A stretch of 64,000 bases of DNA, from the IMG/VR virus record IMGVR_UViG_3300033073_000410, positions 1 to 64,000 of that record; one strand, 5' to 3'. The position numbers and the translations under genes are program-made. The number at the start of each line of letters is the position of its first letter. The stretch's first letter is position 1. The notes beneath the pieces were generated by a model. It worked only from the letters and a program-made list of their open reading frames with translations. It made no database searches and was not told the origin of the DNA. Source of the DNA: a virus (lineage: Duplodnaviria; Caudoviricetes). Below, piece after piece: positions 17,453-18,614 of the stretch.

Positions 17453-18037
17453 CTACCTATTAAGTTGGTGACCTGGCACATCAATGATGACCTCTTGTAA
17501 AGATACATTATCTCTCATTTCGATTAAATTTACAACCGTATTGGCTAACAAGTTTGGGTCCATCTTCTTTCCACCACTGAACATTTTGGTTAAATCAGTA
17601 TCTATTCTACCCGGAATGATAGACATAACATTAGGAAAGATTGGCTTAGACCCTAACCCATTATACGGGTAAACTATATCCATCTGCTCTTTCTTTGCAT
17701 TGTAATATAGCCGTCTTGCCGGGGTAAACATCTGTTGCACAGTTTCATTTACATAAATCACTTTACTACAAATGTTTACCACTAATTTGTGTCGTTCATT
17801 TGACCAGGCTGCTAACACAGCCTTAAGCATTAGAGTTTGTCCTACTGGAGTGTATGTGTTGTTGATGAACACATCACAGTCGTTCAACGAGGATATGATA
17901 GTATCACGAATAGTTGAATCGTCTATGTCATACCCGGTTGATTTGCTAAACCCTATTACTTCATGTCCATGAGATTCTAGTACATTCTTTAATTGAAGTC
18001 CTAGGCCCCTCGTGTGCCCGGTCAATGCTACTTTCAC
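17453..18037 (-). CDS. Short-chain dehydrogenase/reductase
   Basis: TGHTRGLG, FINN, YYNAK (YxxxK), PGRIDT. Confidence 0.8.
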   Translation of the reverse strand: MKVALTGHTRGLGLQLKNVLESHGHEVIGFSKSTGYDIDDSTIRDTIISSLNDCDVFINNTYTPVGQTLMLKAVLAAWSNERHKLVVNICSKVIYVNETVQQMFTPARRLYYNAKKEQMDIVYPYNGLGSKPIFPNVMSIIPGRIDTDLTKMFSGGKKMDPNLLANTVVNLIEMRDNVSLQEVIIDVPGHQLNR

Positions 18038-18534
18038 GCAAAAAGATCCTCACACCATTCACGATGACCTTCTCTGAAAGCCATGTTACTTTGTGTTTCT
18101 CTAACCTCAACACGATAACACCACAATCTTTTTGCTTCACTTTCACCCCACATGTCTGGGATGTAAACACCATTGACATACTTGTATAGCATGTCAGATA
18201 ATGCTTCGCAACCTAGTGCTGGCAAGATAGTTAACTTAGCTAACTTTCTGCGTTCCATTTCTTTATAGAACTCTAGTTCAGGGTCATCTTGTGCTACTAA
18301 TGTAGTGTGGTCAAACTGGTCTTCTAAAATCTTCTTTAGTTCTTTCAAGCCGCCGTAATCAGCAGCCCAATTACGAACGTCTAAATCGTTTGTACCGAAA
18401 TAGAACTTCATGCTGAAACTATAGCCATGATTCATATTGCAGTGGCTGTCTGCACGCCATTGACGATAAGCGCAAGGGAATGCGTCAATGTATTCTTTTG
18501 TACTTGTGTACTTGTAAGTTATTGGGTTATGCAT
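18034..18534 (-). CDS. queD: 6-carboxy-5,6,7,8-tetrahydropterin synthase
   Basis: CNMNHGYS (CxxxHGY), DYG.LK, FDH, E.L, VEVRET..N. Confidence 0.88.
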   Translation of the reverse strand: MHNPITYKYTSTKEYIDAFPCAYRQWRADSHCNMNHGYSFSMKFYFGTNDLDVRNWAADYGGLKELKKILEDQFDHTTLVAQDDPELEFYKEMERRKLAKLTILPALGCEALSDMLYKYVNGVYIPDMWGESEAKRLWCYRVEVRETQSNMAFREGHREWCEDLFA

Positions 18535-18605
18535 ATTTTCTCCTATGTTAATTTTAGCATAGGCAGCAGAATTTGTAAAGCGGGATGATGCTAAGACCGC
18601 TATCT
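18535..18605 (-). ncRNA. Candidate preQ1-I-like riboswitch in the queD leader
   Basis: AGCGG-UCUUAGCAUCAUC-CCGCU-UUACAAA-UUC-UGCUG-CCUAUG-CUAAAAUUAA-CAUAGG-AG-AAAAU-AUG: P1, pseudoknot P2, A-rich linker and anti-SD hairpin. Confidence 0.6.
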
Positions 18606-18614
18606 TTATTTACC

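Follow-up and report, generated by a model that had tools for sequence, protein, structure and literature searches.

The queD-like locus

The window, that is, the whole stretch of 64,000 nucleotides that was analysed, comprises positions 1 to 64,000 of the IMG/VR record IMGVR_UViG_3300033073_000410. This 115-kb record covers part of a jumbo phage (estimated completeness 33%) and encodes a family-B DNA polymerase along with other replication genes. On the minus strand of the window, an open reading frame (ORF) of 166 codons (18534-18034) encodes a protein of the PTPS/QueD family (Pfam PF01242, E 4.5e-14). The protein contains a CxxxHG motif (C-x3-H-G) and matches the QueD and PTPS models of NCBIfam weakly.

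All genes around the queD-like gene lie on the same strand. They encode FolE, a nucleotidyltransferase, an SDR-like protein, a QueE-like radical-SAM protein, and glycosyltransferase-like proteins. The SDR-like ORF (17453-18037) sits between the QueD-like and QueE-like genes. Between a 99-codon ORF (18914-18615) and the queD-like ORF there is a gap of 80 nt, which is filled by a leader. Read on the minus strand, positions 18612-18535 are letter for letter the queD leader quoted in an earlier prediction (here called the original prediction), which had been made from the sequence alone and which proposed a preQ1-I-like riboswitch at this site. The features of the locus are collected in Table 1.

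Table 1. Features of the queD leader and of the neighbouring genes, in the order in which they are read on the minus strand.
Feature	Position	Strand	Remark
FolE	20719-20039	-	strong match
Nucleotidyltransferase	19375-18914	-	neighbour of the leader
TAAATA motif	18612-18607	-	5 nt upstream of P1; possible phage promoter element
P1 5' strand, AGCGG	18601-18597	-	pairs with 18583-18579
Pseudoknot loop, 13 nt	18596-18584	-	L1 + P2 5' strand + L2
L1 (N-C-U)	18596-18594	-	C and U invariant in alignment A1
P2 5' strand, shifted register of the original prediction, UAGCA	18593-18589	-	within the loop
P2 5' strand, family register, GCA	18591-18589	-	within the loop
L2 (UCAUC)	18588-18584	-	last base, C18584, invariant
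P1 3' strand, CCGCU	18583-18579	-	covariation in alignments of relatives
Sigma-70-like promoter	18579-18551	-	-35 TTTACA 18579-18574, 17-nt spacer, TG, -10 TAAAAT 18556-18551
Tail L3, 13 nt, form UAYAAAYUCUGC	18578-18566	-	conserved single strand
P2 3' strand, shifted register of the original prediction, UGCUG	18568-18564	-	uses the invariant UGC
P2 3' strand, family register, UGCC	18565-18562	-	3 bp plus an A-C mismatch in the window copy
SD-sequestering hairpin	18563-18540	-	arm 18563-18558 pairs with 18547-18542; MFE fold
SD	18544-18540	-	within the sequestering hairpin
Start codon AUG of the QueD-like gene	18534-18532	-	ORF 18034-18534, PF01242 match
SDR-like protein	18037-17453	-	weak NCBIfam matches; nearest Atlas clusters with adh_short or Epimerase domains
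QueE-like radical-SAM protein	17381-16461	-	PHROG E 1e-53

Distribution of the element

Relatives of the leader were collected by a search of IMG/VR based on QueD, which returned 203 relatives, from which 80 loci were kept. The element lies directly upstream of the gene in 77 of the 80 loci fetched by QueD homology. Further loci were added by a scan with a 20-nt pattern taken from the tail. After removal of duplicates, 140 distinct versions of the element were available from IMG/VR contigs of uncultured phages; the filter for these unique elements demanded C-U at loop positions 2-3. A single PTPS/QueD cluster accounts for 134 of the 139 downstream ORFs. Within this cluster, the N-terminus comes in two divergent types, and some members are extended at this end.

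A covariance model built from the relatives finds the site in the window with 58.5 bits (E 2e-19), and the next-best match in the window reaches 10 bits. Both the window and the whole record contain exactly one copy of the element. Near-complete relatives (320-345 kb) also contain one copy each, and one locus (L030) contains two. Weak matches of the model in the genomes of two relatives (L096 and L097) were rejected, as they lie inside a coding region and on the other strand.

Among cultured phages (INPHARED), no real blastn match was found with either a 1.1-kb query or the leaders of all three platform classes described below, and the QueD homologues of cultured phages show at most 51% identity. 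In bacteria and archaea, matches to the tail pattern (80 loci scored, of at least 120 stretches) are attributable to chance. With model R1 they reach no more than 24 bits, against 47-70 bits for true members. The literature searched contains no paper describing this pseudoknot family, and no Rfam family for it was found. Judged by sequence comparison, the pseudoknot is real, abundant and phage-specific, found here only in contigs of uncultured phages.

Structure of the element

When the leader of the window is folded as a single sequence, the result is no better than chance (z = -0.89). Because of this, the reality of the structure rests on comparative data.

The first helix, P1, has five base pairs and is paired in 100% of 99 distinct relatives. 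Three of the five pairs have changed on both sides (A-U to U-A, G-C to C-G, and C-G to U-A), and the two pairs on the loop side are G-C in every sequence. In 500 shuffles, none reached the observed number of paired cells, none the number of cells changed on both sides, and none the covariation score. A search free of any pairing requirement recovered three true members (L105, L210 and L217) that each have one mismatched P1 pair, which indicates that the P1 signal was not created by the way the sequences were selected.

The single-stranded parts are conserved as strongly. In L1, C and U are invariant in alignment A1; among the 140 distinct elements their invariance is partly by construction, since the filter required C-U. 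The first loop base varies (U in 61, C in 53 and A in 26 of the 140). At the end of the loop, all 140 have a C, which is mostly preceded by U and in a few elements by C or A. In the tail L3, seven positions are invariant and three more are nearly invariant (alignments A1 and A2), and this conservation holds across all three platform classes. Together, about 20 positions outside the helices vary little or not at all: the C-U of the loop, UCAUC before the 3' strand of P1, and UAYAAAYUCUGC after it.

The second helix, P2, forms between the 3' portion of the P1 loop (before UCAUC) and the 4-7 nt right after the invariant UGC of the tail. Each of the four P2 pairs has changed on both sides among the 99 distinct sequences of alignment A3, which was fitted by a model containing only P2 and is thus biased towards this helix. 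The inner three pairs are formed in 95% of cells, and the innermost pair is seen as all four Watson-Crick types (U-A, A-U, G-C and C-G). The G-U pairs of P2 fit RNA of the sense strand only. For P1 and P2 together, the covariation score is 0.442, compared with 0.113 +/- 0.011 for shuffles and at most 0.058 for slid partners; with related sequences and a P2-fitted alignment, the shuffle figures are not to be read as probabilities.

Because the P2-fitted alignment leans towards P2, an anchored, alignment-free test was added. In this test the mean helix is 3.93 bp long, against 3.52 +/- 0.07 bp with shuffled tails, and none of 1000 shuffles came as high. The anchored test replaced an unanchored longest-helix swap control, which was uninformative, GGC/GCC being common to nearly all loops and tails.

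The leader element is, on this comparative evidence, a real H-type pseudoknot with a conserved core. An H-type pseudoknot made of P1 and a loop-tail helix is what the original prediction had described, and the collection of queD leaders that it had suggested as a check bears this out, as P1 and P2 both covary.

Comparison with preQ1-I riboswitches

The original prediction placed the element near class I of the preQ1 riboswitches and suggested a scan with the Rfam model as a check. At gathering level, a scan of the window with Rfam finds no family. A permissive scan with RF00522 gives 12.8 bits (E 5.5) over model positions 6-34 of 45, far below the gathering score of 39. Relatives do not match this model either: no match was found in the leaders of L013 and L001 scanned alone, or in ten whole loci, a less sensitive scan. 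Other Rfam matches in the permissive scans are weak and at chance level.

Several parts of the preQ1-I pocket are well described. A strictly conserved specificity cytosine lies directly 5' of the P1 3' strand, and a conserved G-C pair that closes P1 forms the floor of the pocket (PMC11625349). In L1, a conserved U6 (UU in types I and III) reads the N9-H of the ligand (PMC11625349). A short, A-rich L3 leads straight into the P2 3' strand, and a conserved A in it reads the edge of the ligand (PMC11625349). Regulation is OFF, with SD bases buried in P2 or with the formation of terminators (PMC11625349).

The phage element shares much of this build. It is a small H-type pseudoknot with a 5-bp P1 and a loop-tail P2, it has an invariant G-C floor next to the loop, and its tail begins A-rich (UAYAAA, with invariant A's). 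An invariant C precedes the 3' strand of P1, and in most cases it follows a U, as in preQ1-I type I (e.g. Carnobacterium antarcticum). The element is also located before a gene of the queuosine-pathway type.

There are equally clear differences. In place of a conserved U6, the first base of the loop may be U, C or A. The 13-nt tail of the phage element contains an invariant Y-UCUGC before P2, which has no counterpart in the aligned Rfam consensus. The 3' strand of P2 is the anti-RBS strand, not the SD itself, and the predicted wiring is ON, not OFF. Finally, the phage element was found here only in contigs of uncultured phages.

Thus, of the preQ1-I-like pseudoknot and SD platform that had been proposed, the likeness stands and the family membership does not: the RF00522 score is 12.8 bits against a threshold of 39, and the L1 uridine is not conserved. 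On paper, the element resembles a pocket of the preQ1-I type, and it should not be filed as a member of RF00522. What is new here is a queD-leader pseudoknot that looks like a variant of the preQ1-I design with the opposite wiring.

Expression platforms and switch direction

The same aptamer-like element is followed by three classes of platform: A (85 unique elements, including that of the window), B (30) and C (22). In class A the platform is a hairpin, with the SD paired to its 5' arm; the start codon is covered by a longer helix in classes B and C. No terminator-like site was found for the leader.

The 3' strand of P2 is part of these sequestering helices. In the knot-free minimum free energy (MFE) fold, at least 2 nt of this strand pair with the region from the SD to AUG+5 in 125 of 139 members. 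The anti-RBS strand of classes B and C begins at +1 after UGC in 47 of 51 members. In 90 of 139 members, blocking the P2 strand makes the SD or the AUG more accessible, with a gain in unpaired probability of more than 0.2, and a loss of this size never occurs for the SD; the knot state in these calculations is approximated by forbidding the P2 strands from pairing, and pseudoknot energies are not in the model.

Knot and sequestering helix are therefore predicted to be mutually exclusive. Since the P2 3' strand lies inside the sequestering strand, formation of the knot would free the SD or AUG, which amounts to ON wiring. To our knowledge, the ligand stabilises the knot in every known pseudoknot riboswitch. 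If a ligand does so here too, the family would be wired as a translational ON switch that is OFF by default. The original prediction had argued for OFF logic, which is at odds with the position of the P2 3' strand inside the anti-RBS strand in 125 of 139 members.

An example of such an ON design can be found in the add adenine riboswitch of Vibrio vulnificus, a translational ON switch with a purine aptamer built on a three-way junction. There, too, a default hairpin hides the RBS, a strand of the aptamer is also part of the sequestering helix, and binding frees the RBS. The two differ in that the aptamer is a junction there and a pseudoknot here, and there is no sequence relationship.

The copy in the window

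The copy in the window has an unusual P2. Its outermost pair is an A opposite a C, which is one of 22 non-standard cells at this position among 99 sequences. In the register of the family, P2 of the window has 3 bp and -1.9 kcal/mol, while typical members have -4.2 to -5.3. UGC occurs three times in the tail of the window, so the loop GCA can slip among three registers. The shifted register of the original prediction has 5 bp and -3.5 kcal/mol (18593-18589 with 18568-18564). A further, alternative pairing of the loop with 18560-18554 has 7 bp and -5.9 kcal/mol.

In the knot-free leader, the hairpin that the original prediction had drawn, in which CCUAUG pairs with CAUAGG and buries the AGGAG, does form in the MFE fold, and the unpaired probability of the GG of the SD is 0.00. 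It rises to 0.53-0.77 when the P2 strand of the family register is blocked. With the shifted P2 strand blocked, the SD core stays buried (GG unpaired 0.01).

These figures bear on the mechanism that had been proposed for this sequence. It holds that a ligand stabilises the shifted P2, which abuts and maybe stacks on the SD hairpin (OFF), and that without ligand the loop pairs 7/7 with 18560-18554 (ON). Within the window, both the shifted P2 (-3.5) and the 7-bp pairing (-5.9) are stronger than the P2 of the family register (-1.9), and blocking the shifted P2 leaves the SD core paired, as the model would have it. Product-driven OFF control is also the usual logic of biosynthetic genes and of the known preQ1-I riboswitches (PMC11625349).

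The relatives point the other way. The shifted register is impossible in classes B and C and in many members of class A. A subfamily with an AGCA loop exists, and the base that precedes AGCA is U, G or A (opposite G), so the fifth pair is not kept; the shifted helix is also shorter in the anchored test, with a mean of 3.22 bp. The 5-bp P2 of the original prediction thus exists and fits the window copy and this subfamily, and it is not the register that covaries. Likewise, its pairing of UUAGCAU with AUGCUAA forms in the window and lacks support from covariation: the partner strand is invariant in class A, so that covariation can neither favour nor exclude the pairing there, and it is missing from classes B and C. 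In both of these classes, moreover, the P2 3' strand itself sequesters the start codon. For the window sequence alone the two-state OFF model is possible; it has no comparative support, runs contrary to the wiring of the family, and is considered improbable.

The window copy looks like an atypical member of the family, partly decayed or re-registered. Its behaviour is less certain than that of the family, as the shifted 5-bp and the 7-bp registers are both available to it. It is useful as a natural variant of P2 and would be a poor first choice for biochemistry.

Promoters within and upstream of the element

A sigma-70-like promoter is embedded in the leader of the window. It matches 10 of 12 consensus positions and has the TG of an extended -10. 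Its -35 lies at the start of the conserved tail and its -10 in the loop of the SD hairpin. A match of at least 9/12 with a spacer of 17-18 nt is present in 76 of 85 class A relatives. In the -10 hexamer of class A, positions 1, 2 and 6 are the most conserved and position 3 varies (TAnnnT), a pattern like that of real -10 elements, and TG is present in 67 of 70.

Conservation of the leader could in principle reflect this promoter, a function at the level of DNA rather than RNA structure. The strength of the match in the window and its retention across class A, with the TAnnnT pattern and a fixed range of spacers, are what such a function would produce. Against it, classes B and C keep the tail and the knot without an internal promoter (at least 9/12 in 0 of 30 and 1 of 22, respectively). 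The compensatory changes in P1 and P2 and the strand-specific G-U pairs would also be left unexplained. This explanation is very improbable, and the embedded promoter is most likely an extra feature of class A rather than the reason for the knot. Its position suggests that class A transcripts made by the host polymerase, starting at about 18544, would carry the SD without the aptamer.

In classes B and C, a strong sigma-70-like promoter lies upstream instead. Of 38 strong matches, 28 have a -10 that ends 7 nt before P1, which would make the knot the 5'-terminal part of the transcript. Promoters of the TTGACA-17-TATAAT type can be seen at L001 2880-2920 and L007 2870-2910.

Class A leaders often have a word of the TAAATA type 5-11 nt before P1, in place of the upstream promoter. 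TAAATA occurs within 60 nt upstream of P1 in 92 of 140 relatives. It resembles TATAAAT, the late promoter word of T4-type phages (PMC9004378). RTAAATA is not enriched on the two strands of the window, where 20 copies were found and 35 were expected. Such depletion would fit a word that serves as a phage promoter element and is avoided at other sites. Of the 20 copies, 13 lie on the coding (minus) strand, one of them 5 nt before P1.

Pathway context and candidate ligands

Phages use the 7-deazaguanine pathway to shield their DNA from restriction. QueC was not found with Pfam models in the record or in four near-complete relatives, in agreement with the original prediction, which had noted the absence of queC. 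With the Pfam model of TGT, nothing convincing was found in the same genomes. This negative result has to be qualified because of a structural match in the product of ORF 25812-24259.

This ORF, on the minus strand, encodes 517 residues with a DSGGFQ motif. Its protein has no sequence match in Pfam, PHROG or the PDB; its close homologues in metagenomes number more than 6000. An AlphaFold model (mean pLDDT 64, pTM 0.70) was compared with known structures, and every one of the best 50 matches in the PDB is a tRNA-guanine transglycosylase (E about 1e-5, TM 0.42-0.48 on the target). By its predicted fold, the product is a candidate for a divergent DpdA-like enzyme.

Plausibly, CDG or a derivative of it is produced by the cluster and built into DNA. 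With its glycosyltransferases and nucleotide-sugar enzymes, the cluster may glycosylate this base as well. The trio of FolE, PTPS and SDR also resembles the route to tetrahydrobiopterin, and the product of the cluster may lie on that route instead.

By analogy with preQ1-I, any base with a guanine-like face could be recognised by a pocket that contains a specificity cytosine. Such bases include 7-deazaguanines (CDG, preQ0), guanine and pterin intermediates. As the ligand of an ON switch, a precursor or a signal of demand would be more fitting than an end product. Among biosynthetic genes ON control is uncommon, and with the pathway product as ligand it would have no evident rationale.

Proposed mechanism

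The reading that best accounts for these results is that the element is a phage-specific, cis-acting pseudoknot in the leader of QueD/PTPS genes that serves as a riboswitch aptamer of preQ1-I-like build with ON wiring. Its probability is put at roughly 60%. It builds directly on four results: the element is conserved, P1 and P2 covary, the genes downstream almost all encode QueD-family proteins, and knot and hairpin are predicted to exclude each other. By default, the sequestering hairpin would hide the SD or the start codon (OFF). A small molecule with a guanine-like Watson-Crick face would then bind and stabilise the knot, a step that we infer. The knot would take the P2 3' strand from the sequestering helix, so that the RBS is freed and translation of QueD is turned ON.

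Alternatively, the pseudoknot may be the binding site of a protein (a phage translational regulator or QueD), or a structure that blocks the inhibitory hairpin independently of any ligand. A precedent is the leader of phage T4 gene 32, where a pseudoknot nucleates binding of the gene's own protein product, which represses translation. The element resembles it in being a small H-type pseudoknot that lies 5'-terminally on a phage mRNA and would control its translation. Conserved single-stranded positions together with a covarying knot fit an operator as well as an aptamer, no known riboswitch family matches, and ON control by a pathway product has no obvious rationale.

Unlike the gene 32 leader, the element precedes different proteins and shares a core resembling a metabolite pocket with preQ1-I. 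It stands before two divergent types of QueD and, in single cases, before a TauD-family dioxygenase, a cupin, and an unassigned protein. With such diverse downstream genes, autoregulation by a single protein is less likely. The G-C floor, the invariant C and the A-rich tail also match the ligand pocket of preQ1-I (PMC11625349). A protein-binding or ligand-independent role is accordingly rated as unlikely, and an aptamer with ON wiring is preferred.

A more specific form of the aptamer reading is offered tentatively, at somewhat below even odds. The element would represent a new riboswitch class of uncultured, mostly freshwater jumbo phages, with a pocket of the preQ1-I type for another guanine-faced ligand and with ON wiring, and early transcripts of class A would escape control through the nested promoter. 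Candidates for the ligand are CDG or 7-deazaguanine, guanine freed by DNA transglycosylation, and a pterin intermediate such as dihydroneopterin triphosphate.

Phage-encoded riboswitches are rare, and the literature searched offers little beyond the glutamine riboswitches of marine phages (PMC9004378). It contains no report of a riboswitch controlling phage synthesis of 7-deazaguanine. If the proposed mechanism is true, an RNA of about 50 nt would be a natural test of how ligand and logic can change in the smallest known riboswitch fold. It would also provide a handle on the timing of DNA hypermodification in phages, and a compact ON-switch part for synthetic biology.

Other genes downstream of the element

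A few copies of the element precede genes other than queD. The second copy in locus L030 (1867-1917), next to the QueD copy, precedes a gene for a TauD/TfdA-family dioxygenase (1946-2866). In one case each, the element precedes a cupin (L153) and a protein of 243 residues that belongs to no known family (L165). At L213 (7776-8624, minus strand) and L203, the leader is followed by an ORF of 282 residues with a TTG start, which is not QueD and belongs to no known family.
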